Source of the DNA: Malacoraja senta
Lineage: Eukaryota
Assembly (NCBI GenBank): GCA_038087875.1
Contig: CM075990.1
Span: forward strand, 17,734,001 to 17,798,000
DNA length: 64,000 nucleotides
Direction: 5' to 3'
Numbering within the stretch: position 1 is the stretch's first letter; the number at the start of each line of letters is the position of its first letter. Below are positions 14,735 to 57,169 of the stretch, piece after piece. The position numbers were made by a program, and so were the translations under genes. The notes beneath the pieces were generated by a model. It was given only the letters and a program-made list of their open reading frames with translations, did no database searches and had not been told where the DNA came from.

Positions 14735-16117
14735 CATGAAACATTGAACAGTGCAGCCCAGGAACAGGCTCTTTGGCACACAATGTCTGTACCGAACATG
14801 ATGCCATCAAACTAATCACATCTGCCTACACTTGATCCACATCTGTCCAATCCATGCATTACCAAGTGTCTATCTAGCCGCTCCCTCAACACCACGATCA
14901 TATCTGCCTCCATCACTACCCCTGGCAGCGCACTCAAGGACCCCCCCCCCCCCCAACTCTCTGTGTACAAATCTGTCCTAAGCATCTTTATTAACGTTTC
15001 ACCCTTTAAAGCTATGCCCTCTACTATTTGACATTTCCATCCTGGGAAAATGTACTTATTGTTTACCCCGTCTCTGCCTTTCATAGTTTTATAAATGTCT
15101 ACCAGACCTTCCCACAGCCTCTGACACTCTAGAGAAATCAATCCGTTTATCCAATCTCTCCTTAAAGCTAATACCCTCAAATCCAGGTAGGGGATGTTCA
15201 TGTTAAACTCTATCGTGTATTGTGTTATTTGTATTTGTATGGCAGGATGGGGACTCAAATCTCACTGTACCATGGGTGCAGGTGACAATAAATGTAACTT
15301 GAACTTGATTCAGGTAAACGTCCTCTGCGCCCTCTCCAAAGCCCCCACACCGTATTTGTAACGGGGCGACCAGAATTGCTCGCAATACTCCAAATACAGC
15401 TTCATCAAAGTCCTTTAGAGCAACAACATAACTTCCTGATTAAAGCACTGACCAATGAAGGCAAGCATACCACATGCATTCTTTCCCACTCTATCTATTT
15501 GAGCTATGGATTTAGACTCCAAGACCCCTCTCTACATTAATACTGTTACAAGTCTTGCCATTATCGATATACTTTCCACTTTCATTCAACCTCCTAAAGT
15601 GCGACACCTCACACTTGTTTAGATTAAATTCCATCTGTCATTGCTGTAGCTGATCTATATATTGTCGGAATGTCCGCCAGTTATTGTCTGTTAATTTACT
15701 AACCAACCCATCTACATTTACATCCAAGTCATTTATACACATCACAAACAGCGGAGGTCCCAGCACAGATGTCAGCAGAACTCCACTCGCCACAGATCTT
15801 CAGTCAGAATAACACCAACCCATGGGTTAAGCCAGTTCTGATTCAAAGTGACCGAGTCACTGTGACCCATGCCTTAATCTCCCGGATCAGCCCACCACCG
15901 GGGACTTTATCAAAAGCCTTACCATGTAGACAACACCCACCAACCTACGCTCATCGATTACCTTCGTCACCTCAAAAAAAACCTCGATCATGTTCGTAAG
16001 ACATGACAACCGTGTACAAACCCTAACCCTAACCCTAACCGGGCTGACGATTCCAAATGAACCCATTCTCTTTCACGTGCAAGTAAATGACATCCCAAAG
16101 AATCCTCTCCAATAGTT
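14735..16117 (-). mobile_element. Decayed CR1 LINE (minus strand), cut by the assembly gap
   Basis: ORF 14812-15258(-) has degenerate CR1 C-terminal motifs (LISLECQRL..LVDIYK, RLDRHL); RT-like sequence continues to the gap. Confidence 0.75.
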
Positions 16118-16317
16118 NNNNNNNNNNNNNNNNNNNNNNNNNNNNNNNNNNNNNNNNNNNNNNNNNNNNNNNNNNNNNNNNNNNNNNNNNNNNNNNNNNN
16201 NNNNNNNNNNNNNNNNNNNNNNNNNNNNNNNNNNNNNNNNNNNNNNNNNNNNNNNNNNNNNNNNNNNNNNNNNNNNNNNNNNNNNNNNNNNNNNNNNNNN
16301 NNNNNNNNNNNNNNNNN
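16118..16317. other. Assembly gap (200 N)
   Basis: Run of 200 n. Confidence 1.
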
Positions 16318-18939
16318 TGACATGGACGAGCTGGAAGCCTCTGTGCTGAGAATCATGTCTGAGGACGGGTCTGGGGAAGGAGTGGACGAGGAAGAGTCAA
16401 CCAGGCAGGAGGATGGTGAAGATAAGGACGAGGCAACCACAGCCGAAGCCTCGGATGAAGAGGAGGCCGAGAGGAGCAGTGGAACTAAGGAAGACAGCGC
16501 AGAGGAAGGCGGCATAGAGAGTAACGAATCTGAGGAGAAAGTCACTGCATCTGGAGCAGAGAGTGACGCGGGTGCAACAGAAAGCAAATGTGGGGAAGAG
16601 CGTGTAGATGACAGCGCTGCCCAGGCGGAGGGAGGGATGGTGGAGGAGAGTGCAGGTAGTGAAGAGGAGGCTAGAGAGGGAGAAAGCAAAGAGGGAAAAG
16701 CTTTAGAAAGCGAAGAAATTGGTAAATCAATTGAACAGTCTGAAAAGCAAAATCTTACCAAGAGGAAAGACGCCGACGAGGAAAAACTATCAGAAAGAAA
16801 ACCAGAGAGAGAAGATATTACAGGAATCACGGAGTCTAATGAGCAGGAAGCAGCAGAAACAAAAGCAGCGGCTGAAGAGGTTAGCACAAGCGATAAAACC
16901 GAGAGTGTGAAACAAGGAGCAATGGAGGAAAGTCACCGTAAAGAGGGAAGAAGCGGCAAGGGACAGCGTGAAGAGCGAGTACATCAACAGCAGGAGGAGT
17001 TGAAAGTAATGAACCAAAAAGCAACTGTTGCGTCTGAAGTTAGAGGGGAAAGTGAGGGTCATAAGAAAGAGGATAAAGTGGAGCAATATCCACAGAAAGC
17101 AAAAGAGGAATCACAAGGAGACAAGAGAGAAACTGCTCCCCAAGTGTTAGCAAAAGAAAGCGAAAGTCAGAAAGCTAAAGTTGAAACAAGGGAAGAAATA
17201 ACAACGCCTGAGATGAATGGGCAAGTGGAGAAATCACACCATCAGATAGAAGGCAACAAGAAAGCCTATATTTCCAAGGAGGGGGAAGAAGCCAGTCAAG
17301 AGAAAGAAGTAACAATGGAAGAACAGAGTGAGAAAGAGAAAGTAGAAAGTGAAGAAAATGTAGAGAAAATCTCAGTAGAAAGTGTGGAAGAAAAAAATGT
17401 AGCTGAAACTCCCAAAAGCAAGGACCAACAATCAGGGGACAGTGGCCCACAATCAGGAGACAAGACTCAACAGTCTGGGGACAAGAGTCCACTATCAGGA
17501 GACAAGAGCCCACAGTCTGGGGACAAGAGTCCACTGTCAGGAGACAAGAGCCCACAATTAGGGGACAAGACTCAACAGTCTGGGGACAAGAGTCCACTGC
17601 CAGGAGACAAGAGCCCACAGTCTGGGGACAAGAGTCCACTATTAGGGGACAAGACTCAACAGTCTGGGGACAAGAGTCCACTGTCAGGAGATAAAAGTCC
17701 ACAATCAGGAGACAAGAGTCCACAGTCTGGGGACAAGAGTCCACAATTAGGGGACAAGAGTCCACAGTCTGGGGACAAGAGTCCACTGTCAGGAGATAAA
17801 AGTCTACAATTAGGAGACAAGAGCCCACAGTCTGGGGACAAGGGTCCACTATCAGGAGACAAGAGCCCACAGTCTGGGGACAAGAGTCCACTATCAGGAG
17901 ACAAGAGTCCACAATTAGGGGACAAGAGTCCACAGTCTGGGGACAAGAGTCCACAATCAGGGGACAAGAATCCACAGTCTGGGGACAAGAGTCCACAGTC
18001 TGGGGACAAGAGTCCACAGTCTGGGGACAAGAGTCCACTATCAGGAGACAAGAGTTCACAATCAGGGGACAAGAGTCCACAGTCTGGGGACAAGAGTCCA
18101 CAATCAGGGGACAAGAGTCCACAGTCTGGGGACAAGAGTCCACTATCAGGAGACAAGGGTCCACAGTCTGGGGACAAGAGTCCACAATCAGGAGACAAGA
18201 GTCCACAATCACGAGACAAGAGTCCACAATTAGGGGACAAGAGTCCACAGTCTGGGGACAAGAGTCCACTATCAGGAGACAAGGGTCCACAGTCTGGGGA
18301 CAAGAGTCCACTATCAGGAGACAAGGGTCCACAGTCTGGGACAAGAGTCCACAATCAGGAGACAAGAGTCCACAATCACGAGACAAGAGTCCACAATTAG
18401 GGGACAAGAGTCCACAGTCTGGGGACAAGAGTCCACTATCAGGGGACAAGAGTCCACAGTCTGGGGACAAGAGTCCACAATCAGGGGACAAGAGTCCACA
18501 ATCAGGGGACAAGAGTCCACAGTCGGCGGAGAAGATCCCACCGTTTGGGGACAAAGAAACACAGTCTGGGGAGAGGAGCCCGCAGTTAGGGGAGAGGGTC
18601 ACAGGGTCAGGAGACAGAAGCCCACAGCCTGGAGACAAAGGACTACAGTCGGGAGATAAGGTCGCACAGTCAGGAGACAAGCGCCCACCGTCTGGGGACA
18701 AGGACTCAGTGGCCATCATAAATGGGCTGGACATCAACATGGATAATGAAGAAAGTGAATCTGAAATTGACAAGAAGATGCCAAATACCTCAGAGGTCAT
18801 TCAGAAGATCACCGAGAAGACAACTGAGCACACAAAGATATCTAAAGTCTCCATCACCCGCACAGTGAATGAGGATATGAAGACGGTGGTAACAGTGGCC
18901 AAAGCAGATCCAAAGAGTGATGCCAAAGAAAGTAAATGA
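16318..18939 (+). CDS. Terminal (tail) exon of a neurofilament medium/heavy-like protein with KSP repeats; 5' exons missing in gap; apparent 1-bp deletion at 18338-18340
   Basis: Glu/Lys-rich ORF 16322-18340, then about 61 heptads containing 41 KSP motifs. Restoring one G joins ORF 18709-18939 (AIINGLDIN...IQKITEK...KVSITRTV), which resembles the NEFM C-terminus (VVTNGLDLS...EKITSE...KSVTVTQKV, from memory). The start DMDELEASVLRIMSEDG aligns with NMAELEADYKIVMDQEG of the neighbouring neurofilament gene. Confidence 0.85.
17432..18711 (+). repeat. Coding 21-bp tandem repeat (TCTGGGGACAAGAGTCCACAG, SGDKSPQ), about 61 units
   Basis: Counted by hand: 52 well-conserved and 9 degenerate heptads. 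Confidence 0.95.
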
Positions 18940-20113: not shown

Positions 20114-20640
20114 GTGAGTGAGCGCAGAGTTGAGACAAAGTGAGAGAGCGATGAGACAGACGAGAGGGAGAGAGGCACACACACACCAAGGCCCATGGAG
20201 AGCCAAGGACAGAGTGAGAGAGGGCCTGAGGAGTAGGAGCTGTGTGTTCTGTGGCGATGACAGGTCTACCGTGCCCGCAGCTCCACTACGCTGCTGGGTC
20301 TCCGATCGTCTATCGATCCGAGCCTGTTGTGGGCTGTGTGACTAGGAAACCCCAATGGCCCGCCCCCGTCTGGGCGCAGAGAATCCCCCCCCCCCTATCC
20401 CCGCAACCACCATCCTCCCGCAACCCCCTCCCCACCTCCCCCCTCCCCAATCTCTCTCCCCCTACACCTCCACCCTCTCAACCCCCTCCCCCATCTTCCC
20501 CACTCCTCCAATCTCCCACACCTCCACCCATTGATGGAGATAAAATAGTGACAAATTGTGCATTACAATGCAGAAACCATTTACTTAATATAACATCAGC
20601 ACAGAAGTTAAAAGGATTTCAAATGTCAGACTTCACCTTT

Positions 20641-21372
20641 AGGTAGACAAAAAATGCTGGAGAAACTCAGCTGCGTGTGGGGGGGGGGGGGGATTAGAGA
20701 CGTCACTGTTCATACCGCTGGGGTGTAAACTACACAAGTGAAATATAAGGTGCTGTTCCTCCAATTTGTGCTGGGCCTCACTTTGGCAATGGAGGAGGCC
20801 CAGGACAGAAAGATCAGAGTGGGAATGGGAGGGGGATTGAAGTGCTGAGCAACCGAGCGATCAGGTTGGTTAAGACGGACTGAGCGGAGATGTTCAGCGA
20901 AGCGATCGCCGAGCCTGCGCTTGGTCTCGCCGATGTAGAGAAGTTGACAACTGGAACAGCGGATGCAGTAGATGATGTTGGAGGGGGTGCAGGTGAACCT
21001 CTGCCTCACCTGGAAAGACTGAGTTGGTCCTTGGATGGAGTTGTGGGGGAGGTAAAGGGACAATTGTTGCATTCGCTGCGGTTGCAGGGGAAAGTACCCG
21101 GGGAGGGGGAGGTTTGGGTGGGAAGGGACAAATTGACCATGGAATTACGGAGGGAACGGTCTCTGCGAAAAGCAGAAAGGTGAGACAATGGGAAGATGTG
21201 GCCAGTAGTCTTTTTCCTGTCCACCCCACCACCCCCGACATCAGTCAGAAGAAGGGTCTCGAACTGAGACGTCGCCAATTCCTTCTCTCCATAGATGCTG
21301 CCTCACCCGCTGAGTTTCTCCAGCATTTTTTGTCTACCTTTGATTTTTGCAGCATCTGCAGTTCTTTCTTAA
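20641..21372 (-). mobile_element. Penelope-like retroelement fragment (GIY-YIG endonuclease) with inverted terminal-repeat copies
   Basis: ORF 20710-21072(-): QVRQRFTCTPSNIIYCIRCSSCQLLYIGETKRRLGDRFAEHLRSV. 20641-20670 is the reverse complement of about 21310-21339. Confidence 0.88.
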
Positions 21373-21384
21373 ACACTTCACCTT

Positions 21385-28079: not shown

Positions 28080-28700
28080 GTCATAGAGTCATATAGAGTG
28101 AAAACAGGCCCTTCAGCCCAGCTTGCCCACACCGACCAACATGTCCCAGCTACACGTCCCACCTGCCTGTGTTTGGTCCATATCCCTCCAAACCTGTCCT
28201 ATCCATTTACCGATCAAACTGTTTCTAAAACGTTGGGATAGTCTCAGCCTCAACTACTTCCTCTCGCAGCTTGTTCCATACACTCACCATCCTTTGTGTG
28301 AAAAGGTTACCCCTCAGATTATTATTTAATCTTTTCCAGTTCACCTTAAACCTATGTCCTCTGGTCCTGCATTCGCCTACTCTGGGCAAGAGACTCTGTG
28401 CATGTACCCGATCTATTCCTCTTATGATCTTGTACACATCTATAAGATCACCCCTCATCCTCCTGCGCTCCAAGGAATAGAGACCCAGCCTGCTCAACCT
28501 CTCCCCATAACTAACACCCTTTAGTCCTGGCAACATCCTCGTAAATCTTCTCTGGATCCTTTCTAGCTCAACAACATATTTCCTGTAACACGGCGCCCAG
28601 AACTGATGCAATACTCTAAATGCGGCCTCACCAACGTCTTGTACAACTGCAACATGACCTCCCAACGTCTACATTCAATACTCTGACTGATGTAGGCTAA
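28080..28700 (-). mobile_element. CR1 3' portion, interrupted by a Penelope insertion and resuming at about 29933-29990
   Basis: ORF 28225-28665(-): FWAPCYRK..LERIQRRFTRMLPGL...RMRGDLID...RTRGH...NLFTQRMV. Confidence 0.88.
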
Positions 28701-28704: not shown

Positions 28705-29935
28705 TGCGCCTTCATCTGACTTCATCCATTTCACCACTAACTTCCATCCGGCACTCAAATTCACCTGGACCATTTCCGACATCTCCCTACCGTTTCTAGA
28801 CCTCACCATCTCCATCACAGGTAATAGACTACTGACTGACATCTACTACAAACCCACTGACTCCCATGGCTATCTGGACTACACTTCTTCAACATCTGCA
28901 GTTCCTTCTTATACACTTCTTCCCACCCTGCTTCCTGTAAGGACTCCATCCCCTACTCCCAATTCCTCCATCTACACCGCATCTGCTCCCAGGATGAGGT
29001 GTTCCAGACCAGGGCATTGGAGATGTCCTCATTCTTTAGGGAACAGGGGTTTCCCTCTTCTATAGATGAGGCTCTCACCAGGGTCTCCTCTATATCCCGC
29101 AGCTCCGCTCTCACTCCCCATCCCCCTACTCTTAACAAGGGCAGAGCCCCCCTTGTCCTCACCTTCTACAATACCAGTCGTCACATACAACATATAATCC
29201 TCCAACATTTTCGCCACCTCCAACGGGATCCCACCACTTGCCACATCTTCCCATCTCCTCCCCTGTCGGCTTTTCACAGAGACCATTCCCTCCGTAACTC
29301 CCTGGTCAATTCGTCCCTTCCCACCCAAACCACCCCCTTCCCTGGTACTTTCCCTTGCAACCGCAGGAAATGCTACACTTGTCGCGTTACCTCCCCCCTT
29401 GACTCCATCCAAGGACCCAAGCAATCTTTCCAGGTGAGGCAGAGGTTCACCTGCACCTCCTCCAACCTAATCTGTTGCATCCGTTGTTCCAGGTGTCAAC
29501 TTCTCTACATTGGTAGACCAAACGCAGGCTTGGCGATCGCTTCGCTCAACACCTCCCCTCAGTTCGCAATAACCAACCTGATCTCCCGGTGGTTCAGCAC
29601 TTCAACTCCTCCTCCCATTCCGAATCTGACCTGGGCCGCCATTGCCAGAGTGAGGCCCAGCGCAAATTGGAGGAACAGCACCTCATAGTTCGCTTGGGCA
29701 GTTTACACCCCAGCGGTATAAACATTGACTTCTCCAATTTCAGGTAGTCCTTGCTTTTTCCCTCCTTCACCTCCCCCTCCCAGCTCTCCCACATGCCTAC
29801 TGTCTCCGCCTCTTCCTTTCTTTTTCCCACCCCTCCCCCACATCAGTCTGAAGAAGGGTCTCAACCCGAAACGTCACCTGTTCCTTCTCTCCATCGACGC
29901 TGCCTCACCAGCTGAGTTTCTCCAGCATTTTTGTA
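28705..29935 (+). mobile_element. Penelope-like retroelement, 5'-truncated (RT thumb, GIY-YIG endonuclease, terminal repeat with hammerhead motif)
   Basis: FLDL..TDIYYKPTDSH.YL, SIPYSQFLHL.RICS, FREQGFP, PLVLTF, QVRQRFTCTSSNLICCIRCSRCQLLYIG. Ends with ctgaagaagggtctcaacccgaaacgtc. Confidence 0.92.
29848..29875 (+). ncRNA. Minimal type I hammerhead ribozyme motif (PLE-associated)
   Basis: CUGAAGA, extra A, helix II GGGU-[CUCA]-ACCC, GAAAC, GUC cleavage triplet. Helix III is only the palindromic ACGU; helix I is short (GU/AC). Confidence 0.65.
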
Positions 29936-30404
29936 CACCTACTGTGCTCTGTTCTACAACACCCCACAGAGCCCTGCCATTCACAGTATAAAGGTGTAAA
30001 TGATGTGAAGGCGTGGAGTTCGCTGCAGAGGCCGCCCCTGAAGCCACAATCTTCCGCTCAATGGTGACGCCAGATAGTTAATGGTGGCGACGGCGCTGTA
30101 TGTCAACGGGGGGTGAGTGGTGCAGGAGATGGTCCATGCGCTCCATGTTATGGTGTACATGTGACCTGTCCTTCATCGGACCGTGCTTGGACGCTCCTAC
30201 CTTCATGCGGCTGGAGATGTTCTCCCGTGTTGGGAGCTCCAGGCTTGACACGTGTTGTGATGAAGGAATGGGGACGTATTTCTCAGTCAAGATGGTTTGT
30301 GGCGTGTCGGGGGGGGGGGGGTCAGCGCTCCGCTCTTGCTCTTCGCAACCAACGAGGCAGCGTGGGGAAACGCTGCCAGCGTAGACTGGGCAACTTGCTT
30401 TCAA

Positions 30405-30600: not shown

Positions 30601-30647
30601 ATGCACTGTCCGTCAACATGGTTTGAAGTGGTGGAAGAGACATTCTG

Positions 30648-31446
30648 TTGGATAGGACGTACATGGTAAATGGTAGAGAATTGAGGAATGCAGTTGAACA
30701 GAGGGATCTAGGAATAACTGTGCATAGTTCCCTGAAGGTGGAATCTCATGTAGATAGGGTGGTAAAGAAAGTTTTTGGGGTGCTGGCCTTTATAAATCAG
30801 AGCATTGAATATAGAAGTTGGGATGTAATGTTAAAATTGTACAAGGCATTGGTGAGGCCAATTCTGGAGTATGGAGTACAATTTTGGTCGCCTAATTATA
30901 GGAAGGATGTCAACAAAATAGAGAGAGTACAGAGGAGATTTACTAGAATGTTGCCTGGGTTTCAGCAACTAAGTTACAGAGAAAGGTTGAACAAGTTAGG
31001 TCTTTATTCTTTGGAGTGCAGAAGGTTAAGAGGGGACTTGATAGAGGTCTTTAAAATTATGAGCGGGTTAGACAGAGTTGACGTGGATAAGCTTTTTCCA
31101 TTGAGAGTAGTGAAGATTCAAACAAGGGGACATGACTTGAGAATTAAGGGACAGAAGTTTAGGGATAACTTTAGGGGGAACTTCTTTACTCAGAGAGTGG
31201 TAGCTGTGTGGAATGAGCTTCCAGTGGAAGTGGTGGAGGCTGGTTCGATTTTATCCTTTAAAAATAGATTGGATGGGTATATGGACGGGAAAGGAATGGA
31301 GGGTTATGGTCTGAGTGCAGGTAGATGGGACTAGGGGGAAGTATTTATTTTAATTTTTTTTTTTAATTAAAAAAATGTTCGGCACGGACTTGAAGGGCCG
31401 AGATGGCCTGTTTCCGTGCTGTAATGGTTATATGGTTATATGGTTG
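30648..31446 (+). mobile_element. Young 5'-truncated CR1 with uninterrupted ORF2 C-terminus and (ATGGTTAT)n tail
   Basis: Open 228-aa ORF (EQRDLG...LVRPILEYGVQFWSP...ERVQRRFTRMLPG...NFFTQRVVAVWN); 8-bp tail repeat at about 31423-31446. Confidence 0.92.
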
Positions 31447-31697: not shown

Positions 31698-32684
31698 ATG
31701 AGTTTCGGCTGGGAGTTACTCGATGCTTTCCCACCCAGGAGGCTGCCCCGGGACATGGGGGTCCGCACTCCAGCCTGGTCCCTCAAGCATAGCCCCCTGT
31801 CCGCCAGCCGCGGCCTCGGCTCCCCGCTGCACAAGTCCCCGGACAGCGTGCACCTGCTACAGTCCGGAGCGCTGGCCGAGGACCTCGCCGCGCTCGGCAG
31901 CAACGAGAAGCTGCAGATGCAGGGGCTGAACGACCGCTTCGCCGGCTTCATCGACAAGGTACGCCAACTGGAGCAGATGAACCGCGGGCTGGAGGCCGAG
32001 ATCGCGGCGCTGAGGGAGCGGCAGAGCCGCCAGTCCGGACTGGCCGCCGGCTACGAGCCCGAAATGTCGGAGTTGCGGAATCTCCTGGTGGAAGCGGAGA
32101 AGCAGAAAGTACAGCTTGTGTTGGAGAGCGAGCAGGTGCGGGAGAGCGCACAGCGCCTGGCCGAGCGGTGCGAGGCTGAGGCGCGGGCACGCGTGGACAC
32201 ACAGGTCAATGTCCAGGCCTGCAACACTGAGCGGGACAGCAGTAACGTGGCCACACTGGAGCTGCAGCGCAAAGCGCAGTCGCTGATGGACGAGATCGCC
32301 TTCCTGAAGAGTAACCACGAGGAGGAGGTGTCCGACCTGTACAGCCACATCCAGGCGGCGCAGGTGAGCGTGGAGGCGAGGGATGTGGCCAAGGCCGACC
32401 TGGCGGGAGCCCTGCGGGCGATCCGGGCCCAGATGGAAGGCTGCAGCGGCGACAACATGGGCCAGACCGAGCAGTGGTTCGATGCCCGCGTGGCCAAGCT
32501 GAACCAGGCGGCGGCGGTGAACAGAGAGGCCCTGCAGAGCACACGGCAGGAACTGAGCGAGTACAGTCGCCAGGTGCAGTCCCGGGACATCGAGCTGCAG
32601 ACCATGCGAGCGAGGAAGGAGTCGCTGGAGAAGCAGCTGGGCGACGCCGAGGCCCGGCATGACTCCGATCTAGTCGGCTACCAG
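31698..32684 (+). CDS. Neurofilament (NEFM/INA-like type IV intermediate filament) exon 1: head and most of rod
   Basis: ATG 31698 (MSFGWE...), coil 1A NEKLQMQGLNDRFAGFIDKV, EIAFLKSNHEEEV; donor CAG|GTGAGG; 987 bp, phase 0. Confidence 0.95.
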
Positions 32685-32719
32685 GTGAGGAATGTTAGTT
32701 ACAGAGTTAGATTTAGCTC

Positions 32720-32858
32720 ATAGGGCTAACAGAATCAAGGGATATGGGGAGAAAGCAGGAACGGGGTACTGATTGTGGATGATCAGCCTTGATCATTTGA
32801 ATGGTGGTGCTGGCTCGAGGGACCGAATGGCCTACTCCTGCACCTATTTTCTGTTTTT
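32720..32858 (+). mobile_element. CR1 3' terminus in intron 1
   Basis: gatatggggagaaagcagg...gatgatcagcc...gaatggcctactcctgcacc. Confidence 0.8.
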
Positions 32859-33032
32859 ATGGAATGCGGGTCCCTCTTACCCCCCTCCCCCTCCGCTCCC
32901 GGCTGTTTACTCCACAAAGTGCTGGAGTAACAGCGGGTCTGGCAGCATCTCTGGAGCAGGAATAGGTGACGTTTCGGATCGAGAACTTTTTTTATTGTAA
33001 TTGCGAATTCCAGTCTGCTGTGTGTTTTACAG

Positions 33033-33157
33033 GACGCCATCCAACAACTAGATAACGAACTAAAAAATACAAAGCGGGAAATGGTGCTGCACTTGCGGGA
33101 GTACCAGGAGCTTCTGAACGTGAAGATGGCCTTGGATGTGGAGATCGCGTCTTACAG
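33033..33157 (+). CDS. Neurofilament exon 2 (coil 2B)
   Basis: ttttac[43 protein letters not shown](R)|GTAGG; 125 bp, the characteristic size of this exon in type IV genes. Confidence 0.96.
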
Positions 33158-34429
33158 GTAGGACGCGAGGGCCAGAGCAGGCTGGCGGCGGGATTCTCTC
33201 TCTCCTCCCCCCACGCCGGGAGTTATCTGGAGGGAATTCCCCCTCAGCGGCGAGAACGATGCAGGGGTTAAAACTGCGCAACTCCCAATCACCATTCACT
33301 TTGGACTTGGACAGCAACATGTAAAACCGCGATGCGGAATCAATAAACGGCCGCTGTGCAGCTGCTGCAAGATTGATTCATGCCGGGAATCCGCGGCAGG
33401 TTCAGCAGTTGCGCAAATACCGCGGCTTGGAGACGGGGTAACCCGGTCTGCACATCCACAGAGAGCAGGTCACGGTCTCCGTGCCACAGCCATGTCCACA
33501 CTCGCCGCACACTAGCCGCGCTCTCCCCTCCCCTCCCCTCCCCACTGCGCCTTCATGTACACCCCCACCCCGCCTGCCTGAAGGAGCATCACCTCTGTCC
33601 ACTGCCCGTCAACCCCTCCCTCAGCCTACGCTCTGCAACGTCCCGCAGCTGTCTCTGTCCACCCTTCATGACCAGACACCTCCAGCACATCTCCCCAGAA
33701 CCGTTTTTTTAAAATATACAAAGACTTTATTTCACTTTACTTTATAATCACAGTACAAACACTGGAAGGGCCAATGTTGCCAAACAGTGTACATCAAACC
33801 ACAACGGTATATCGGGTAAACCCGACGCACTGCCCCCTGCGCTCTTTCCTGCACCCCCTCATTTTCGGATCCCACCCCCCTGTACAGTCAACTTCCCAAC
33901 GAGTAAAACGCCGGCCCCGGATACAGCGCGCCAGTGTCGCTGGCCACAGGCGACACAGGATGAAGACAAACTCATCCCATGGGTCTCGTCTGTCTTATTA
34001 TGAACGACGTTTATCTGGAAATATAAAAAGGAGGAGTTTGCAAACCAAATACTGAGTTGCGATTCCCAACTCTTGCTGCCGTCCGGCGGGGAAGGATTTA
34101 ACTGTTAGAGAGCTCTGTTATTCCCGCAGCCCCGCCTCGGGTGCCGGTCGCCCCAGTCCATGTCCCGGCCCCAACGCGAAATGGGCCGTTCTGAACTACA
34201 TTAATCATTTAAAAAAATCAGTGTTGCTTATTTCGGAGCGCAGGTGTATATCGCGGCGGGCAGGTGAGGTCCGGGGACTGTGCCGCCTTGTGCTGGCGGC
34301 GGGAGAGGAGAGCAGCGGGGACAGGCGCTTAACCATGGAATGAGATACATGGAACTGCGGATGCCGGTTTACAAATAGACACAAAGTGCTGGAGTAACAG
34401 CAGGTCAGACAGCGTCTGTGGAGAACATG

Positions 34430-34600
34430 ACAGGCACAATAACAACATTTAAAAAGACATCTCGACAGGTACATGGACAGGTAAGGGCTAGACATAAGGG
34501 CTAAATGCGGGTAAATTGGACTAGCTTAGGGACATCTCGGTCAGTATGGACGAGTTGGGCCAAAGGGCCTGATTCTGTGCTGTATATTTATCTATGACTC
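34430..34600 (+). mobile_element. CR1 3' end fragment in intron 2
   Basis: catttaaaaagacatctcgacaggtacatgga...gggccaaagggcct. Confidence 0.75.
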
Positions 34601-34633
34601 TGAAGCTGTAACATTATTGTTTTGTATTTGAAG

Positions 34634-35960
34634 GAAACTGCTTGAAGGGGAAGAGACAAGATTCGGTGACTACACTCCCTCAACATATACGTATAAACCA
34701 CAGCCATTAACACATGCAACCTACATGACAACCAAGACCAAAGCCACCTCAACAAAGGTCATGCCTCAGTACAGGTTTGTAGAAGAAATCATTAGTGCAA
34801 CAACGAAGGAAGTTAACATGGCAGAGTTGGAAGCTGATTACAAGATAGTGATGGATCAGGAAGGAGAAACACAAGGTGAGGCAGCAGAAAGAGAGGGAGT
34901 TGCGGACAAGGAACCAAGTGAAGCAGAAGAAGCTGCAGAGGGAGAGGAAGCTGAGGTAGAAGATAAGGGTGGGGAGGAAGATGCAAAGGGGGATGTTGAA
35001 GAAGAGGAAAAAGATGAAGAGGAGGTTGCAGAAGGAAAGGATGAAGAGGACACAGGTGAAGATAAGGTTGAAGAGGCAGAAGAGAATCAGGTTGAAGGAA
35101 GTAATGGAGAGGTTAAGAAGGGGGAGGAGGAGCAGGTGGAAGAGAAAGAGGAGGAGGAGGTCAAAGAGGAGCTCAAAGAGGAGGTCAAGGAGGAGGAGGT
35201 CAAAGAGGAGGAGGTGGTCAAAGAGGAGGAGGTCAAAGAGGAGGAGGAGATCAAAGAGGAGGTGGAGGAGGAGGTGGTCAAAGAGGAGGTGGTCAAAGAG
35301 GAGGAGGTCAAAGAGGAGGAGGTCAAAGAGGAGGAGGTCAAAGAGGAGGTCAAGGTCAAGGACGAGGTGGAGGAGGTCAAGGAGGAGGCTGAAGGAAAGG
35401 AAGAGAAGCTTAAAGATGAAGAGACAGTTGAAGTAGCTAAAGAAAAGGTTGAAGAGAAAGTAGTGAAGGAAAAGTTTGAGGAGAAGGTTATAGAGAAGAC
35501 TGAAGAGGAAAAGGCTGACATAAATGATGGAGAGATGGTTGAAGAGAAGACAGAAGAGAAGGCAGAAGAGCAAAAAGCTGAAGGGAAGGCTGATGTAAAG
35601 GATAAAGCGGAAGAGAAGGCGGAAGAGATGGTGGAAGAAAAGGCGGAAGAGAAGAAAGAAGAGAAAGCAGAAGGAAAGGTTGAAGAAAAGATTTCTGAAC
35701 AGAAGGCCGAAGCAAAAGGCATTTCTAAGACGAAGGAAGGTGAAGGTGTAACGGGAGCCTCAGCGGTGAAGGGGGGCGATCAGGTTGAGGATAAACTAAT
35801 GGGCAAGGATGAAAAGGCAAAAGTGCCAGACACCAAAGTAGCAGGAGGGGAGAGCCAGTTAGCTTCAGGAACCACGCCAATGAATGGTAAAGAAACAGTG
35901 ACAGAGACTGAAACTAAAGATGAAGCAGCTTCCACAGAGAACGGCCAGGGGACACAGTAA
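34634..35960 (+). CDS. Neurofilament exon 3: rod end and Glu-rich tail (full protein 812 aa)
   Basis: ttgaAG|(R)KLLEGEETRF; NEFM-like tail motif KVMPQYRFVEEII; E/K-rich tail to TAA 35958-35960. Exon sum 987+125+1327=2439 bp, in frame. Confidence 0.95.
35148..35390 (+). repeat. Coding 15-bp-based repeat (GAGGAGGAGGTCAAA, KEEEV)
   Basis: EEVKEEEVKEEEVVKEEEVK... in the tail. Confidence 0.85.
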
Positions 35961-36230: not shown

Positions 36231-36764
36231 AGACACTTCAATCTGATATCCGGAGTGCCTCAGTGTGACATTAATGTGCTTGGGGGGAAAGGGGGGAATT
36301 GACATCATTGGTTGGATTTGCAAAGTGCCCCTGTGCAAGGGAGAGCAAAGACCTCTATACTGCTTCACTAGTGTCCCTTCTGAGCGAGATTAGGAGAGGC
36401 AGGATGTGGATTCTAAACAGGGCCAGACTTGAGGTGGGCAAGTGCATGGAGAAGATTACTGTGGCAGAGCAGTTATTTAAAGCACGGGAAGGGCATCAGA
36501 TGCAATCTGTCGCCCTTTCCTCTTCAGGCATGGTGGGGCACCTTGTGTTTATTAGGAATTAGCGGTTGGATATCCTGGTGATTCTCATTGAATCTGTCCT
36601 GGTTCTTCTTGGTAGAGAAACTAAAAGACCCCTCAGAGGTGCCATCTCTGGCGGACCTCAGTGCAGTCCATACACGATACACGATAGGAGCTCTGTCACC
36701 GAGAAGACTGAGTCAACAGGTTTAACAGCTCTGTCCTCATCAGACAAACAAATAGGAACAAAGA

Positions 36765-36957
36765 TCAACAGATGCTCGTTTGTACCAGAGACTCAAGGTG
36801 CTTGAGTGACTCAGCGGGCCAAGCAGCATCTCTGGAGAAAAAAAAGATGGGTGACATTTCTGGTCAGTCTGAAGAAAAGTTCTGTCCCAAGATGTCACCC
36901 ATCCTCTATATCCAGAGATGCTACCTGTCCCGGTGTGTTACTCCAGCACTGTGTCTA
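36765..36957. mobile_element. Inverted pair of PLE-terminal-repeat-derived units (fold-back)
   Basis: ...ctcagcgggccaagcagcatctctggag...gggtgacatttc, then ctgaagaa...gatgtcacccat...ccagagatgct...gttactccagcactgtgtct. Confidence 0.65.
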
Positions 36958-39900
36958 AACTCCTGGGAACAGCCTGATAAATTTTCAGCACTCCTCCAAT
37001 AACTACATCCTTTTGGAGGCAACCAGACCATAACTGTGCACAAGACTCCAGTCTCACCAAGGCACTATATTATGGTAGTTTATGACAGCTCTACACTTGT
37101 ATTCAACTGATGCTATCAAGACCAACACACTCCTCGCTTTGTAAAAACAAGAACTGCAGATGCTGCTTAATACACAAAGTGCTGGAGTGTTCAGCAGCTC
37201 AGGCAGTACTTCTGGTGAATGTGGATAGATGATGTTTCTGATTGTAGGGAAAGCTCATTTTCATGCTGTTAGCTTTCAGTGATGAGTACCAGAACATTAG
37301 TCCCTTCGACTATCAATGTTTCTCAACCTGTCACCATTCAGAAAATTCTCAGCATTTCTGCTTTAAGTGGCTATCCTCACATTTACCACAACATGCTCCA
37401 GCTGCCCATTCGCTCACTCTGCTTGCGCACAGCCACTTGCGCCCACTGTTAACCAGGAGCCATCACCCACCAGTTGACATGACCTGCCTGTTCACTTTGT
37501 GAAAGGCCCACGGTTTTACCACGGACAACTTGAAACATGCAGCACTCACTTGCACAGTAACGTGGGGCAGGGAACAGCTTTCAGTGGTCAGATCAAAAAC
37601 TGTCACAGATGGAAGATCTAACGCTCATCATAGCACAACATTGCAAAACAACCCTTTCTTTCTTTAGTAAAGGTCTTAAACATTATATGAACATCAAGGT
37701 GTTGCAGCACTTACAGAATGCCTTCATGCAGGCTATCGCTGAGCATGTTACTGAGGAAGGTGTGCAAGTGTAAGCTATTGAAAGAGTCTCCAGTGCGCAG
37801 CCAGAGAGCTAGAGACAATCACAATTAGTTCACCACCTGGGACTGGACTGGTCACTCCCTCCTTCTGCAACACCACTCCTGCCATTGGGCAGCACACCAC
37901 TTGATCAGAATGTAGTACAGGAACATAATTAAATGATTGGTCAAACCTCTAGCTGTGGAGAAGGACATAGTTCAGATTGGTATCATTGCTTTCAGCTTCC
38001 CCCTCATCAATCAAACACTGGAAACCAGAGCAGATGCTCGTTTACATAACCATTCATTAGCTGTTTATAGCCTTTGTTCCAATGCTATTTCATCGAGGGT
38101 TAAATGTCTTAAAACCAGGCCACTCAGTGACCTTTGGGGTGATCAAAGAGCAGGGATTTTGTCCACACATCCATTTGGTCCCTTGAAATGTGGCTTGAAG
38201 CTCAGCAAAGACAACATTTCCTGTTTCACATTTCTATCCACTGATTCCACTATTTCCAATTCTGTTCAGGTTTTTAAATTGTCTGAGTTTTGACATTTAA
38301 AATAAAATTCTTAACTTATTGTTGCTAAACTATTTTCAGCAAGTAAAATGAATACTTTATCTGATTCTGTACAATTGACTCACCTCAAGCCCGTATCCAT
38401 TCACCTGGACAGGTAAATCATACGGTTACAAAGCAGAAGGTACAACAGAGACCACACCGGTCCTTTCACTTCCATCCAATGATGATGCAGAGAAACAGAC
38501 ATTTGTTGGTGGCACTTCCACAATGCCATCAACCTTCATGGATTATAGCATCAAATATCTTCCTGTCTAGTTCATAGCCTTGCAACATTCCTCCCCAACC
38601 TCCACCTATTTCTTCAAAGTCACCTCCACGACTGCATCTAGTAGTTTATTCTCAGGTTGATTAGCGTTTGTGTGAAATTTCCAAGTTTAGTTCTCAATCA
38701 GCCACTGTATATGGTCAAACTAGTGAAAGGCAATGGTTTCATTTGAAGCATTCTTTAAAGAATGATGTGCATTCACACATCATCTTTCATGATCTCAATG
38801 TTGTCTGCACTGAGCAGGATCAGTATTGCAGTATAAGAACATGACAGGCCTTCCCTGTACAATTTCACACTGTACACGAGTAGAGTAGAGTTGTCTCTCT
38901 GGTGCGCCTTCAAACCTCTAAGCTGACCGATAAACATCACCTTTTGGCCATTCTCTGCAACACACCCAGGGAGAATTGGGCTTTAAGTTATAATTGTCAC
39001 AGTTCGGTCAGTCAATAGTTGCTCCATAATAAATTGACATTTTAAATACCACGTATATCAGCACCCAGATCACTTTTGACCTCCCCTCACGCACACTCTA
39101 ACCAACATGTACTTTGCTCACCTACTCTTCCCACTGTGCTAGACTGCACTGTGACTGCACAAGGTGCTGGACACAACGTCATACCATCACAGCATCACAC
39201 AAACCCAGCACTGAGTTAACATGGAGCGGTTCTCATCGAGCAGCTTCACAGCAGCGTAACTATGTTGACATTAGAACAGAAAATAGGACATCAGCTCCAC
39301 TAGACCAAACATTTAAAAAATCTGTGAAGTAGACTGAAATTCAGACGATAGGAGCCACTCCAGTGATCAGCATTTTATACAATCGGACACCATCTCACTC
39401 TAAAACCACTCGATGACCACACCAAAAAGGATGCAGTGATGAAAACATTGCAGTCTAACCAAGCAGAGAATCCACATCTCAATCCATGCCACTTACCTGC
39501 TCTATGGATGAACATTTACAGATCACTGGGATCAGCTCTTCACACTGGATTCAATAGAAAAGTATTCAGTCACCTGAAATAGTATTTTCATAATAAACAT
39601 AGTTCTCCAAACTTGTATGATATTTATTCTGTAATCTGGATTCCAGTGGCACTAGCTGTATGGAACTCTAGCCTTTACCAGTTTAGTTTAGTTTATTATT
39701 GTTACATGTACTGAGCTACAGTGAAAAGCTTTTTTGTTGCATGCTATCCAGTCACCGATTGAAATCAAGCCATTCACAGTGTACAGCTACAGGATAAAGG
39801 GTATAACCTTTAGTGCAAGATAAAGTCCTGATTAAAGATAGTTTGAAGGTCTCCAATTGGGTAGATAGGTTAGGACCGCTCTCTAGCTGGTGAGTGGACA

Positions 39901-43757: not shown

Positions 43758-44044
43758 TCAGTGTTCACTGGGAGAATGGCTCCTTCAGTTGCCAGTGACA
43801 CAGGATTCTACCTCACACTCCCATCGCATCGCAACTTGGAGTCGGGAATAAAAAGTACAAGGGAACTGAAAATATACATTTTTGGACAACAGAGCCTCCC
43901 AGCTCCACCTTCTGTTCACAGTAACATTCTGCTACGTTGTTAAGGATCTGAGCATCACTCACAATGTGCCACAGGTAATCGTGAGACTATTGCTGACATT
44001 TTAAATCCATATGGCATTTCATAACAACAAAACCAATGTTACTG

Positions 44045-44262
44045 TGTAGGAAGGAACTGCAGATGGTGATTTACACTAAGGATAGACACAAAATGCTGGA
44101 GTAACTTAGTGGGTCAGGCAGCACCTCAGCAGAAAAAGAATAGGCAACGCTTTGGGTCGAGACCCTTCTTCAGACAGAAGGGCCTTGCCCCGAAACATCA
44201 CCTATTCCTTTTCTCGAGATGCTGCCTGGACTGCTGAACCACTCCAGCATTTTGTGCCTATT
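44045..44262. mobile_element. Inverted pair of PLE-terminal-repeat-derived units
   Basis: Minus copy ending gggtcgagacccttcttcagac, followed directly by a plus copy agaagggccttgccccgaaacatcacc...ctccagcattttgtgccta. Confidence 0.75.
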
Positions 44263-45583
44263 TTCTTGTGTCCATGCCAATGTTACTGCCTGGGAAAGTT
44301 TTTTTATTCCAATAATAAACATCCAGGTTAATTCAGCAAGGCATGAACTGTACGTCACCCTCTATTACTAAACTAATTACTTTCCAGATTAATCAGGTCA
44401 GCTTTGACACTTCAATAGGCAATTGTAAGTGATTTAAATCGGCAAAGAGACATTTGGAAAAACAATGTAGAGTACTAATCATTCTACAAGGTCAAAGCTT
44501 TAGTGCTGTAAAAATGGAACATGCAAGCCAGGCAGGACTCGCTGAGCATTCCTGGCATTTTATTTTTCTTTTATATTTCTTTTGTCGACAGTTTTGATTT
44601 TCATGTAGCTTTGCAGGTACCACAATAGAGCAGCAGCATGACTGTACAAGTATAACACTCGGACTGGTGCCCACCATGTTCAGCTACAGCCCAACAAATG
44701 CTCATTTAGGACTAAAACAACTTCTGACCAAGCCACACCAAGAGTCATCAAGCCTGTTTTCTAGCAAGAGCATATTTCTGTCTCATTTGCCGACTATTCA
44801 ATTATTAAAGGGCTAACATTAAACCATAAAATCTTTCTGAATTTGCCAGGGCAAGATCAATTGCTAGAGAAATGACAGAGGTGTTAAGTTACATCAAGTG
44901 CTCATCCAACAAACAACCTTCCTCAAAGACTATTTCCTTGTCTGCAATACTTTGATACTAACCAATTTGTTGAATTTAGCAAAGTAACAAAATCAGAAAG
45001 TACCATTAATTTACACACCTACTACCATCCTGGCAACAAATAGTTTAATTTTATATACCAACATTTTGTATTTTATCAATGAATCCAGTTCCTTCTCTTC
45101 AGTAATAAAGTAATCTCATAATTAGCACAGTAAAAAGTGGAAATTGAGTCACAAACCACATTTAAGAGGATACAAATCTTCCCATTTAGACACCTTGGAA
45201 ACTTCCTGCTTTCCCCCCACACCCAGCACAAAATAGCTCATCTCCTGTTCTCGAATGCACTGTGCGATGGGCACACTCAGCCACAGAGCAATGCTGCAGC
45301 AGCAGAGACGTACGAGTTTGCAGTGATCAGACTACAATAGTTTAATATTATTTTGCAACGACTTCCCTTGGGACATGGAGCTGCAAGAAATTCTCCAGAC
45401 AAGTGCTTCATGCATACAGCTGAGCAACAGCTGGAGAAATGCAAACTGGTTTTAAAAATACATTATTTCCTTTCACTGCCATCAAGTGTCCCAAGTAACC
45501 TACTGCACTCTCCTGGGGAAGTTGTAGCAGCTTCAAGTGTTACACAAAAGAGCAAGAGGAATAAACAACTGTATTTGATTTTT

Positions 45584-46037: not shown

Positions 46038-46129
46038 TTAAGCTTCCAATTCAAGACCCAGGCCAAGTTTGTGACCACCAGAATTGAAACCCTTCCCATC
46101 AATCAGGGTGCACAGTGTCAGCTTTATCC
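46038..46129 (-). CDS. VDAC2: VDAC2 coding exon 8 (last)
   Basis: AG|(G)[32 protein letters not shown]; 92 bp. Confidence 0.95.
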
Positions 46130-46869
46130 CTGGAATCAACAAGCCAGTGATTAAAAACACATCAGTGCCATGTTTAATAGCATTTTTGCATCAAGCTCCT
46201 GTTCACCAAATCTTTGGCAGAAGGCAACAAACGATGAGACTATACTGCCAGACCAGTCAATCACTGCAAGCTGCCACTCCAGTTTGTAGCTTCTCTCCTT
46301 TGTCAACTTCAGCAAAGAGGGAAATAAGGCAACCGAGAGTAGTCCCCTAATGTAAAAACAATCCTCAAACTGCAGACTAAAAAGCAGGCAAGTACAACTG
46401 GCAGCGTAGATATCAGCCCGCTGAGAAAGGACACAGCATCTTACCCAGCAACAATCTCACTGGGAAATCTACACTAACTGCACATTCACTGAAGATAAAC
46501 ACCTCACATGACTTGGAACCTGTACCATCTTCTTCAACTTTACTGGGCATAGAAATGTGATAAAGCAGCTAAGAGACAAGGCAGAAACATTCAAGTTGTG
46601 GAACTTCAGGGACTCCAGACATTCACCTTCATTGTCTCGGGAGTGGCAACTCATTTTTCAGTTTGGGTTTTATGAAACATCTGAGGGGTGACGAGGGGAG
46701 TGTGGGCTGGTTGAACAAAGCTACAACTGTCAAGCACTTATTCTGAAAGGGGGAGGGGGGAGGTTCAATGAGCTTCACGGAAATCCCATTCCAATCATTT
46801 TACAGTTATCCAACCCATCCAACTACTCATCGTAGCAGTCTTACACAAATAAAGCAGCTGGAGACGTAC

Positions 46870-46927
46870 CTGGCCTAAGAACCTGGCTGTAACCTATTCC
46901 AATTAGGCTGGAGTTGTTGACTTTTGC
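46870..46927 (-). CDS. VDAC2: VDAC2 coding exon 7
   Basis: AKVNNSSLIGIGYSQVLRP(G); 58 bp with AG/GT ends. Confidence 0.95.
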
Positions 46928-47015
46928 CTGAAAGAGATCAGTAAGATGTTAGCATGGCAAAAATATTGAATTATATTTAAACGACAGAGATTAGAAACCA
47001 GAAAGGTGCACTCAC

Positions 47016-47166
47016 AGAAATGGAAGCAGTGGAGTCGAGCTGGTATTTACCAGCAATGCCAAAGCGGGTGCTGTTGTTGCCGGCGGTCCAGGCTAGGTTC
47101 ACTGCCGTCTCCAGACTATCGCTCACCTTCTGATAGATTGATCCACCAAATTCAGCACCGTCATTC
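47016..47166 (-). CDS. VDAC2: VDAC2 coding exon 6
   Basis: [50 protein letters not shown]; 151 bp. Confidence 0.95.
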
Positions 47167-47348
47167 CTGCAGTAAAGTAACCACTTGGTTTAGTTGATTC
47201 ATGGATAATCCAAAAAGCAGCAATTGCTTATTTACAGACCAAGATTTCTGATTTAATAACGAAAATAAATTTAAATAGATAACCTACTGCCAAAGCCAAA
47301 ATCCAAGTGTTTTACCTACGCAAGCATCACTCTTTTAACATAACTTAC

Positions 47349-47576
47349 ACGTTAGTGTGTAGCTGGAAATCTCCGGTTTTGTAGCCTACTGCAAAGTTGT
47401 TCTGGGTGAGTTTTGACTTGGCTGTGTCAAAAGACATTTGGTAGCCAGCAAGCCAACCCTCATAACCAGCTACTGCTGAGGCATGGATGGCAGGGCCTGC
47501 AAAGTCAAAATCCACATCACAGCCCAGGTTGACATATTCACGCTTGTAGGCAGTTTTCACTCTGCCACTCTTCTTG
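47349..47576 (-). CDS. VDAC2: VDAC2 coding exon 5
   Basis: [35 protein letters not shown]...GDFQLHTNV; 228 bp. [10 protein letters not shown] is VDAC2-type. Confidence 0.96.
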
Positions 47577-47660
47577 CTGTGGAGGCAAAGTAGGAACATT
47601 TAGCATCCTGTTGACACCAGAAAACAAAGCTGCTGCAATATCTTTCAGTGCTAGAATTAC

Positions 47661-47713
47661 CCTGTGTTAGGCGAGAAGGTGGTGTCAAATGTCAGCTTCA
47701 GACCTTTGGCAAG
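47661..47713 (-). CDS. VDAC2: VDAC2 coding exon 4
   Basis: LAKGLKLTFDTTFSPNTG; 53 bp. DTTFSPNTG is VDAC2-type. Confidence 0.95.
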
Positions 47714-48262
47714 CTGGCAAAGTAAAATAAACATTGTTTCAGTGCACAACCTAACATTCAAGTCACAATTTTGAAGATAAATGGGGTGTAATACATTTCT
47801 GTACTTGTCCAATATCACAGGTGAGCAAACTAAAGTAACTAGATGATGGACATGGAGACAAAGTGCCCACGCGTTTATTGTTGAAAAAATAGTCCAACCA
47901 CTCTTTCTTCCTCGAGATAATGAGCAAAGCTGGTGAGTTGTGCCACGCAAATGTTCACACTGGCACCAACAGTTTTCCAAATGGGTAAACTCTCAGGCCA
48001 GAATATTGTTTTTGCTTCCTGCCTCACTCGCTCATTAAATTTCCAATATGCTGGAGGAACAGTGGGTTGAACAGTATTGATGGGGAGGAAATAGGGGTGC
48101 TGATATAGGGCGTCAACATACAATGTCAACAATTCCTGCCCCACCACACAACAGATGATGCTCAGCCTGTCAAGTTCCTCCAGTAGATTGTTGCTCCAAA
48201 TCACAGCATCTGCAGTCTCTCGTCTCCAACTCAACTCGTCATCAACTAAAACGAATGATTAC

Positions 48263-48415
48263 CTGATCTTCAATTGCAATTTCTGTGCCCAAAGTGTTAT
48301 CGGTGTTCCATTTCTCCGTAAACGTGAGGCCGTATTCAGACCACTTGTACTTGGTTTCCAAGCTGCCAGACACTTTTCCACTCTCAGTGTTTGAAGATCC
48401 GGAAGTTGTGAATTC
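48263..48415 (-). CDS. VDAC2: VDAC2 coding exon 3
   Basis: [51 protein letters not shown]; 153 bp. Confidence 0.96.
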
Positions 48416-49366: not shown

Positions 49367-49416
49367 CACTCCACTCTGTGACTTGGTTTTCACTTCCAGT
49401 TTTACCAAACCGAAGC
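49367..49416 (-). CDS. VDAC2: VDAC2 coding exon 2
   Basis: (G)FGLVKLEVKTKSQSGV|GTGAG; 50 bp. Confidence 0.95.
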
Positions 49417-49649
49417 CTAGGACATAGCACACAATTAGAACAGGCCTTCGCATTTTAATTACATTCAATTCAAAATGGTGATGAAAACATCACTGTTAAC
49501 AACATGAAAACAGGTGAATGCAAGCGTCTCAGTCAGCTCGCAAGTGGGGCTTCACACTTCAAGGCTATCGCGATACCACAAGGCATGATTATACAACTGT
49601 TTACAGTGTAAATGAGGTTGATGTCTGAAATGATAACACCAACGTCTAT

Positions 49650-52740: not shown

Positions 52741-52744
52741 ATTT

Positions 52745-57160: not shown

Positions 57161-57169
57161 ACCACGTAC

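Follow-up and report, generated by a model that had tools for sequence, protein, structure and literature searches.

Short copies of a hammerhead-bearing Penelope terminal repeat in the genome of Malacoraja senta and their probable origin as by-products of Penelope reverse transcription

Introduction

The window analysed here is a stretch of 64,000 nucleotides of Malacoraja senta (assembly GCA_038087875.1, contig CM075990.1, positions 17,734,001 to 17,798,000, forward strand). Close to its middle, a truncated Penelope-like element ends in a terminal unit with a minimal hammerhead ribozyme motif. The same unit recurs throughout the window, mostly without a Penelope open reading frame (ORF). This raises the question of whether the short, ORF-less copies, here called stubs, form a ribozyme-bearing family of their own or are produced by Penelope elements, and what part, if any, the hammerhead plays.

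The hammerhead and its host element

The hammerhead core occupies positions 29848–29875 of the plus strand and reads CTGAAGA-A-GGGT[CTCA]ACCC-GAAA-C-GTC, letter for letter as given in the initial annotation. With CUGAAGA, an extra A, GAAA and a palindromic ACGU in place of helix III, it is a minimal type I hammerhead. Helix II comprises 4 bp (29856–29867), helix I pairs 29846–29847 with 29876–29877, and the putative cut follows position 29875. Directly before the core lies the initiator-like motif TCAGT (29843–29847), the GT of which doubles as the 5' strand of helix I. The terminal unit is present in its short, tail-less form (29842–29940), which corresponds to the 5' leader of full-length elements. 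It is preceded by a pyrimidine-rich 3' UTR of 94 nt (29748–29841), which varies between subfamilies and is missing from stubs.

The associated ORF (28715–29747, plus strand, stop codon at 29745–29747) is 5'-truncated and frameshifted and encodes the C-terminus of a reverse transcriptase, a linker and a GIY-YIG endonuclease. Homology shared with other Penelope copies begins at 28715. Relatives of the ORF in sharks and rays show 57–67% identity and contain RVT_1 and GIY-YIG domains, while the closest protein relative was found in Amblyraja (78% identity across a third of the query). On a sister copy at 52192–52560, the GIY-YIG match was weak (E 0.0068). The single-ORF layout of a reverse transcriptase with a C-terminal GIY-YIG domain is present, with every copy seen being broken. 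The linker features a C-X4-C-X2-C motif of the Neptune/Nematis type (29356–29382, translation CNRRKCYTC). A CX2-5CxxC linker motif is given as a mark of both the Neptune and Nematis clades (PMC8557442), and by this motif, which Nematis has in common, the element likely belongs to a Neptune-type Penelope lineage.

An Rfam scan yielded no hammerhead family among 26 matches at E ≤ 5, a result that counts neither way because minimal forms are poorly modelled. The motif CUGANGA alone was discarded as evidence, since its enrichment (59 occurrences vs 43 expected) is too small to mean anything. The Penelope copy at 28715 adjoins a CR1-type LINE fragment, and no target duplication was seen there. CR1-type fragments are located at 267–1502, 28080–28700, 30627–31334 and 59162–62808, and long simple tandem arrays at 1900–2200, 6100–7470 and 55400–57200 give rise to spurious open frames.

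The Penelope-like element carries the unit, which measures about 100–137 nt, in two places, at its 3' end and as its 5' leader. In the latter position, the unit and its tail of about 37 nt lead into the 5' UTR, followed by an ATG about 175 nt from the unit start. This arrangement was seen at loci L105 and L130 and, with all or a portion of the unit in place, at 25 of the 30 loci L195–L224; at the other five of these loci, all with a Penelope 5' UTR, the profile found no 5' unit. A partial tandem lies upstream in 9 of the 30. Since the unit is present before the 5' UTR and ORF as well as at the 3' end, it constitutes the repeat that defines the Penelope terminal repeat (pLTR). Copies end at two sites about 35–40 nt apart, either near position 100 (tail-less) or near position 137 (tailed), and an optional tail of 30–40 bp at one end has been described for Penelope-like elements (PMC8557442, PMC3846280). 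The three features of a pLTR, partial tandems, an inverted 5' copy and a one-sided tail, are all present.

At L219 and L220, the start of the ORF is fused directly to the stop-codon/3' UTR region by an internal deletion. This may represent a deletion derivative of non-autonomous type, or simply the duplication of one locus. The start codon of the ORF overlaps a splice-donor-like AAG/GTATG at L130 (325–345) and at L195–L224. Elasmobranch gene models of DIPK1C, CHID1 and NMRK1 isoforms contain a segment of the Penelope ORF, which probably reflects annotation artefacts or exonised copies.

Copy number and distribution

A profile of the unit, iterated on genome copies, yielded 34 matches in the window, among which all 17 positions listed in the initial annotation were recovered. 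The genome was sampled in 100 evenly spaced 10-kb stretches of contigs C1–C14 (998,200 non-N bases, small contigs left out). In this sample, the profile gave 400 matches compared to 0 in reversed DNA, covering 3.8% of the sampled bases at a density of 4.0 ± 0.3 matches per 10 kb. If the sample is representative, this corresponds to about 0.78 million arms or about 0.64 million insertions. The proposed very high copy number is thereby borne out, at about 0.6 million insertions by extrapolation from the 998-kb sample. A structure-based descriptor of minimal hammerheads found 36 matches in the same sample and none in reversed or complemented DNA. Genome-wide, one exact 28-mer occurs 18,728 times and a degenerate core pattern of 34 letters 26,236 times, each with a control count of 0.

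Most copies in the window are decayed. Only seven motifs keep CUGANGA, GAAA, UH and helix II, and the palindromic pair is kept in three of these (29848, 49730 and 51123). Dispersed copies were matched at 1562–1677 (plus strand) and at 4329, 13489, 14200, 22655, 23204, 27324, 32913, 34348, 37149, 43110, 43669, 48043/48100, 51117 and 58716. The description of the copies as ORF-less applies to most of them, while those at 21240, 51117 and 52000 have a Penelope body attached. Of the loop II variants reported, CCCG and TTCG are real subfamily variants, while CTCA is the product of CpG decay of CTCG; a G at 29863, which gives a CTCG loop, was found in 87–94% of the aligned depth in four sequencing runs in contig form.

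Head-to-head stub pairs are located at 44040–44283 (tail on the left arm only, flanking direct repeat of about 12 bp), at 49640–49835 in an intron of a VDAC gene (again with the left arm alone tailed, and with an imperfect direct repeat of about 15 bp) and at 36758–36958 (older, one tail). At 20616–21377, a truncated minus-strand Penelope body stands head-to-head with the tailed unit at 21240. A truncated Penelope copy with an inverted 5' arm lies in the 5' region of the VDAC gene (51984–52754, minus strand) and has a target duplication of 13 bp. In its inverted arm, roughly 55 nt of ORF sequence are fused without a spacer to no more than the final 19 nt of the tail, which suggests that a tail-primed cDNA can halt after 19 nt and be completed by copying the end of the other cDNA.

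A 66-bp tandem array of the unit (57884–58223, minus strand) is devoid of CUGANGA and helix II. Similar arrays of the downstream part of the unit, again without these two features, were observed at L016, L025 and L283, the last with a repeat length below 66 bp. A 90-nt upstream match common to two stubs was considered as a shared body and turned out to be another repeat.

Copies are indeed located in introns of both genes of the window, as had been stated. A neurofilament-medium-like gene with three exons (31700–35960, plus strand, Pfam Filament) contains one copy in each of its two introns (32913–32992 and 34348–34430), both antisense and core-broken. The VDAC (porin) gene, with eight coding exons by eye (about 46038–50833, minus strand) and a probable non-coding first exon near 55300, contains several. 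Two core-intact arms (49730, which belongs to the pair at 49640–49835, and 51123) are antisense to the gene, and a sense copy at 52090 is without the palindromic pair. Since none of the intronic copies in these two genes combines sense orientation with an intact core, the hazard to host RNAs seems minor. Another long acidic exon, with numerous KSP repeats and resembling a neurofilament-heavy tail, lies at 16091–18939 (plus strand) and would belong to a second neurofilament-like gene; its rod exons were not found, and an assembly gap is located near 16120–16320.

The 5' edge of the stubs

Among 254 unpaired matches, 250 could be classified by their flanks as free (171), joined to the UTR (69) or joined to an inverted body (10). 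The free copies begin at model positions 1–8 in 102 cases (12.8 per nt), at positions 9–30 in 38 cases (1.7 per nt) and beyond position 38 in 28 cases. Only three begin at positions 31–38 around the cut site (0.4 per nt), for which reason 5' ends defined by cleavage were rejected. Copy ends inside the UTR or ORF do not exceed 0.26 per nt. The 5' ends of stubs are concentrated 2–5 nt before the core, away from the cleavage site.

Because the profile model itself begins at position 1, base composition was used as a check. Across 82 well-anchored free copies, the element signal fades over TCAG (positions 2–5) in a sharp cliff, with background composition upstream; in 51 UTR-linked copies, by contrast, the bases before model position 2 are rich in C. 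The edge is identical in 14 copies of the oldest lineage, and the consensus of each young or middle subfamily has TCAGT in front of the core despite unlike UTRs. The 5' unit of the ORF-linked loci L105, L197, L205 and L206 begins at the very same point.

On sequence grounds, we infer that the transcript may start near A29845 within TCAGT. The initiator consensus is YYANWYY, which TCAGT fits. Initiator-like motifs have been found in the pLTRs of a rotifer element (PMC3846280) and also in D. virilis. The promoter of the D. virilis Penelope lies in the pLTR, and transcription starts 46 nt upstream of an intron, the end of which lies at helix I (PMC4209133). The start is thus far from the core in D. 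virilis, whereas the start proposed here is just before it. Two other accounts of the edge were rejected. A polypyrimidine-CAG acting as 3' splice site does not agree with the roughly one third to half of stubs that include bases before the junction, and no captured exon was found in these stubs. A downstream promoter element like that of D. virilis does not fit in its spacing, as judged by eye.

Paired insertions

In the sample, 146 of the 400 matches form 73 head-to-head pairs, compared to seven tail-to-tail pairs and 23 direct neighbours. One tail is present in 56 of the 73 pairs and none in 17. Pairs with two tails were never observed, although 10.7 would be expected (P about 1e-5). Direct repeats of at least 12 bp flank 33 of the 73 pairs, but only 2 of 217 mismatched flank controls. 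With stricter ends, the target duplications measure 12–20 bp with a mode of 14, and their AT content (67%) exceeds that of the background (57%). The two arms of a pair agree at 714 of 878 diagnostic cells (81%), compared to 58% after shuffling. Rare variants common to both arms (12 of 414; shuffled maximum 3.5%) are not beyond chance, and the pair data therefore do not establish a single RNA template. In a set of 160 free copies, a tail is present in 68 but a duplication of at least 11 bp in no more than 25, the starts of these 25 being scattered from −6 to +36.

Subfamilies of stubs and long copies

Subfamilies were clustered from the 232 of 400 sampled matches that span the unit, and the resulting series runs from about 25% to 2% divergence. 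Subfamilies 6, 7, 8, 9 and 11 each hold copies with GIY-YIG coding sequence upstream. Within these five groups, a small sample of 130 stubs was compared to 48 long copies. No column separates the two classes (450 tests; smallest p 0.002, at a CpG), and rare variants shared between stubs are not above chance. Divergence of stubs and long copies is similar in four of five groups; in subfamily 9 the stubs look older (0.122 vs 0.066, n = 22 vs 4). The share of stubs varies between subfamilies (16 of 34 vs 75 of 94 copies, p 0.0007). Judged by the composition upstream of free copies, the stubs have no head sequence, and neither a head nor a body of their own, as SINEs would have, was found.

The stubs had been taken for a separate non-autonomous family. 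This is not supported, given the five main subfamilies that they share with ORF-linked copies and the lack of any stub-specific column. The shared subfamilies and similar ages indicate, for this sample, that one and the same set of sources gave rise to stubs and long copies side by side.

Conservation and likely activity of the hammerhead

The assignment of a minimal hammerhead to a Penelope terminal repeat holds, as the core is kept and the changes between lineages are compatible with the structure. CUGANGA, GAAA and NUH with an extra base after A9 are found in the copy at 29848 and in the main subfamily consensuses, which keep all 11 core positions and both CpG-prone positions. Differences between subfamilies fall on tolerated sites, namely N7, loop II, a U-G wobble, C17 to U (H17) and position 1.1; one such tolerated change is an A to G opposite U. 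Sequence comparison suggests that the core was kept under selection in source elements.

Individual copies give a different picture. An intact core with palindrome and 4-bp helix II remains in only 38 of 225 copies. The palindromic positions 15.2–16.2 still pair in 109 of 225, CpG decay accounting for most losses, and G12, which lies within a CpG, is kept in 121 of 166. The expectation that the core is more conserved than its flanks was not confirmed in single copies (95.0% for core vs 93.8% for downstream positions), and between subfamilies the blocks downstream match the core in constancy.

In the oldest lineage, helix II measures 5 bp and helix I 4–5 bp. The 5' strand of this helix I lay outside the search patterns, and the upstream positions −1 and −2 are T in 11 of the 14 copies. 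In young lineages, helix I is reduced to 2 bp. A structure alignment of 47 copies (14 old, 32 UTR-linked and the copy at 29848) showed 84.8% paired cells for helix II and 50.5% for helix I, with the 14 old copies chosen partly by patterns that fix helix II letters. The first pair of helix II is GC in 25, GU in 12 and AU in 4 of 46 copies. A clean double change throughout a lineage was seen at no pair of helix II; one helix I pair changed from U-A to G-C (9 vs 27 copies). The covariation score of 0.229 is higher than that of every slid control and of 499 among 500 shuffles, but only about one or two lineage events underlie it.

Folding predictions gave a probability of 0.4–0.85 for helix II and of about 1e-4 for helix I, with a competing stem that pairs with downstream pyrimidines. 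The lowest-energy form of two strands is not the hammerhead dimer. Minimal hammerheads with a 2-bp helix I have been published (alignment range 2–5 bp), and minimal forms are inactive alone and weak as dimers (PMC4209133). The hammerhead of an anole element is active only with protein and dispensable for insertion (PMC11167929). As its helix I has only 2 bp and helix III is lacking, the young hammerhead would need a dimer or the protein of the element in order to cut. Candidate natural tandem dimers, with exact cores on one strand, are located 38 bp apart at C1:3997405–3997470 and 173 bp apart at C1:3601827–3602027; such close pairs are rare, with two among the first 100 places listed for the exact 28-mer. 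Cleavage at an AUC before the core was considered and rejected, as it is without helix III pairing.

It is possible, though we consider it doubtful, that in young lineages the motif is kept only as a promoter or protein-binding sequence and the hammerhead is vestigial even in the sources. The shortening of helix I from 4–5 bp to 2 bp, its minute folding probability, the failure of the two-strand fold to give a hammerhead dimer and the constancy of downstream blocks all point that way, as do the Naiad elements, which thrive without hammerheads (PMC8557442). It is at odds with the retention of 11 core and both CpG-prone positions, with changes at tolerated sites, with the U-A to G-C exchange in helix I and with the presence of 2-bp helices among published minimal hammerheads (PMC4209133). 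This reading bears on the ribozyme alone and can stand together with the origin of stubs proposed below. In the stubs themselves, the hammerhead appears to be a mostly decayed passenger, and cutting seems not to define the inserts.

Origin of the stubs

We propose that the stubs are by-products of the Penelope reverse transcriptase, namely cDNAs that are primed within the first RNA unit and end where the RNA itself begins, and put the probability of this reading at roughly two in three (0.68). The element transcript would start at the initiator-like TCAGT. The element's enzyme would nick both DNA strands about 14 nt apart, and each DNA 3' end would prime at one of two internal sites, as in the anole element, for which two internal start sites and extension of both strands have been described in vitro (PMC11167929). 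A cDNA primed in the first unit would run off the RNA 5' end and yield a stub, and two cDNAs joined head-to-head would give a paired stub with at most one tail. Priming in the downstream unit would result in an ordinary 5'-truncated copy such as 28715–29940. One-sided tails and inverted copies are known from Penelope-like elements (PMC8557442, PMC3846280), where head-to-head junctions have been explained instead by self-priming on an antisense template (Arkhipova 2013, PMC3846280). Against the run-off model stand the subfamily-dependent share of stubs, which the model alone leaves unexplained, the seemingly older stubs of subfamily 9 and the small number of free copies with a target duplication (25 of 160).

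The same variation in stub share, together with the very high copy number of a discrete unit, would suit a self-propagating non-autonomous element similar to a SINE or retrozyme, with an internal promoter and re-copied in trans, possibly with help from the ribozyme. Moreover, pLTR sequences suffice for trans mobilisation in a rotifer (PMC3846280), the D. virilis promoter sits in the pLTR, and retrozymes have been proposed to be pLTR-derived (bioRxiv 10.64898/2026.07.22.740005). We nevertheless consider this origin unlikely: the sampled copies include no stub-only lineage, the ends of stubs disagree with the cut site, only 23 tandem neighbours occur among 400 matches and the array in the window has no core. 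In addition, what follows a tailed stub is unique flank, while the anole enzyme requires RNA past its start sites (PMC11167929). An ordinary hot spot of 5' truncation is similarly improbable. In that case, the enzyme would start in the 3' unit and stall or be released just before the C-rich UTR, due to a homopolymer, G-rich cDNA or RNA structure, and the edge would not be an RNA 5' end. The edge does adjoin a C-rich tract, and heavy 5' truncation is known for Penelope-like copies (PMC8557442). However, subfamilies with short C-runs yield more stubs than those with long C-runs (75 of 94 vs 16 of 34), the edge persists where UTRs differ and is found in the oldest lineage too, and the 5' unit of the four ORF-linked loci starts at the stub edge.

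A more far-reaching reading, to which we give only a small chance, regards the stubs as the Penelope counterpart of retroviral strong-stop DNA. The RNA would extend from TCAGT to the hammerhead cut in the 3' unit and would thereby have a repeat of about 31 nt at both ends; the 5' ribozyme would be disabled because only 3–5 nt precede its core. Every round of copying would begin in the 5' unit, proceed to the 5' end and from there jump to the repeat on the 3' side, with failed jumps integrating as stubs and successful ones giving long copies and partial tandems. A 2008 study saw no obvious way to regenerate the pLTR. If true, the strong-stop reading would account for this regeneration and for a role of the hammerhead, with about 0.6 million fossils as test material. 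In a softer version, solo stubs would contain an internal promoter and be amplified anew in the manner of a SINE that depends on Penelope.

Taken together, about 3.8% of the genome consists of one unit of about 100–137 nt, the ends of which record the start and stop of reverse transcription. The one-tail rule, the stagger of about 14 bp and the sharp 5' edge provide quantitative constraints on the insertion mechanism of Penelope-like elements, and the loss of helix I along a successful lineage permits a test of the importance of the hammerhead to them.

Comparison with known systems

Compared to the minimal type I hammerheads described from Penelope-like elements (PMC4209133), the motif agrees in CUGANGA with an extra base, G10.1-C11.1, GAAA, palindromic 15.2/16.2, the lack of helix III, its location in the pLTR and its occurrence mostly as single dispersed motifs from truncated elements. 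The young lineage differs in its 4-bp helix II and 2-bp helix I. Core-intact motifs number about 70,000 here, extrapolated from 36 per 998 kb, compared to about 4,000 in coelacanth and about 9,000 in Xenopus (PMC4209133). A term search of one supplement file of that study gave no cartilaginous fish. An expansion of Penelope-like elements has been noted in the whale shark. Among the papers listed in a literature search, none describes this elasmobranch Penelope family; an earlier description may exist in supplements or in Dfam/Repbase.

Endonuclease-positive elements of the Neptune type (PMC8557442, PMC3846280) share the ORF with reverse transcriptase, linker and GIY-YIG, the CX2-5CxxC motif, partial tandems, head-to-head inversions, a tail at one end, target duplications and an initiator-like motif in the pLTR. 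In contrast to these, most insertions here consist of the unit only, with a common sharp 5' edge, and the hammerhead lies within the 5' UTR, with about 140 nt between it and the ATG. The target duplication of about 14 bp exceeds the 8–10 bp of a rotifer element (PMC3846280).

The anole Poseidon element PAc (PMC11167929) resembles the present family in two adjacent internal start sites that bracket the tail, in the extension of both strands, in a hammerhead dispensable for insertion and in the lack of reads ending at the cut site. It belongs to another clade, its ribozyme overlaps the start codon, and stub formation is not described for it in the available part of that work. Non-LTR retrozymes (bioRxiv 10.64898/2026.07.22.740005), a survey of which sampled one chondrichthyan, are likewise non-coding, pLTR-derived and equipped with a type I hammerhead, and also occur as dispersed solo monomers. 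However, retrozymes form tandem arrays with a ribozyme in each unit, while the copies studied here are single or head-to-head, with 23 direct neighbours among the 400 sampled matches, and the array in the window is without the core.

Inversions, one-sided tails, solo pLTRs and dispersed minimal hammerheads have already been published (PMC4209133, PMC8557442, PMC3846280). New here are the count of 0 two-tailed pairs among 73, the lineage test of stubs against long copies and the loss of helix I pairs. The component parts of the family are known, and its value is that of a natural experiment.
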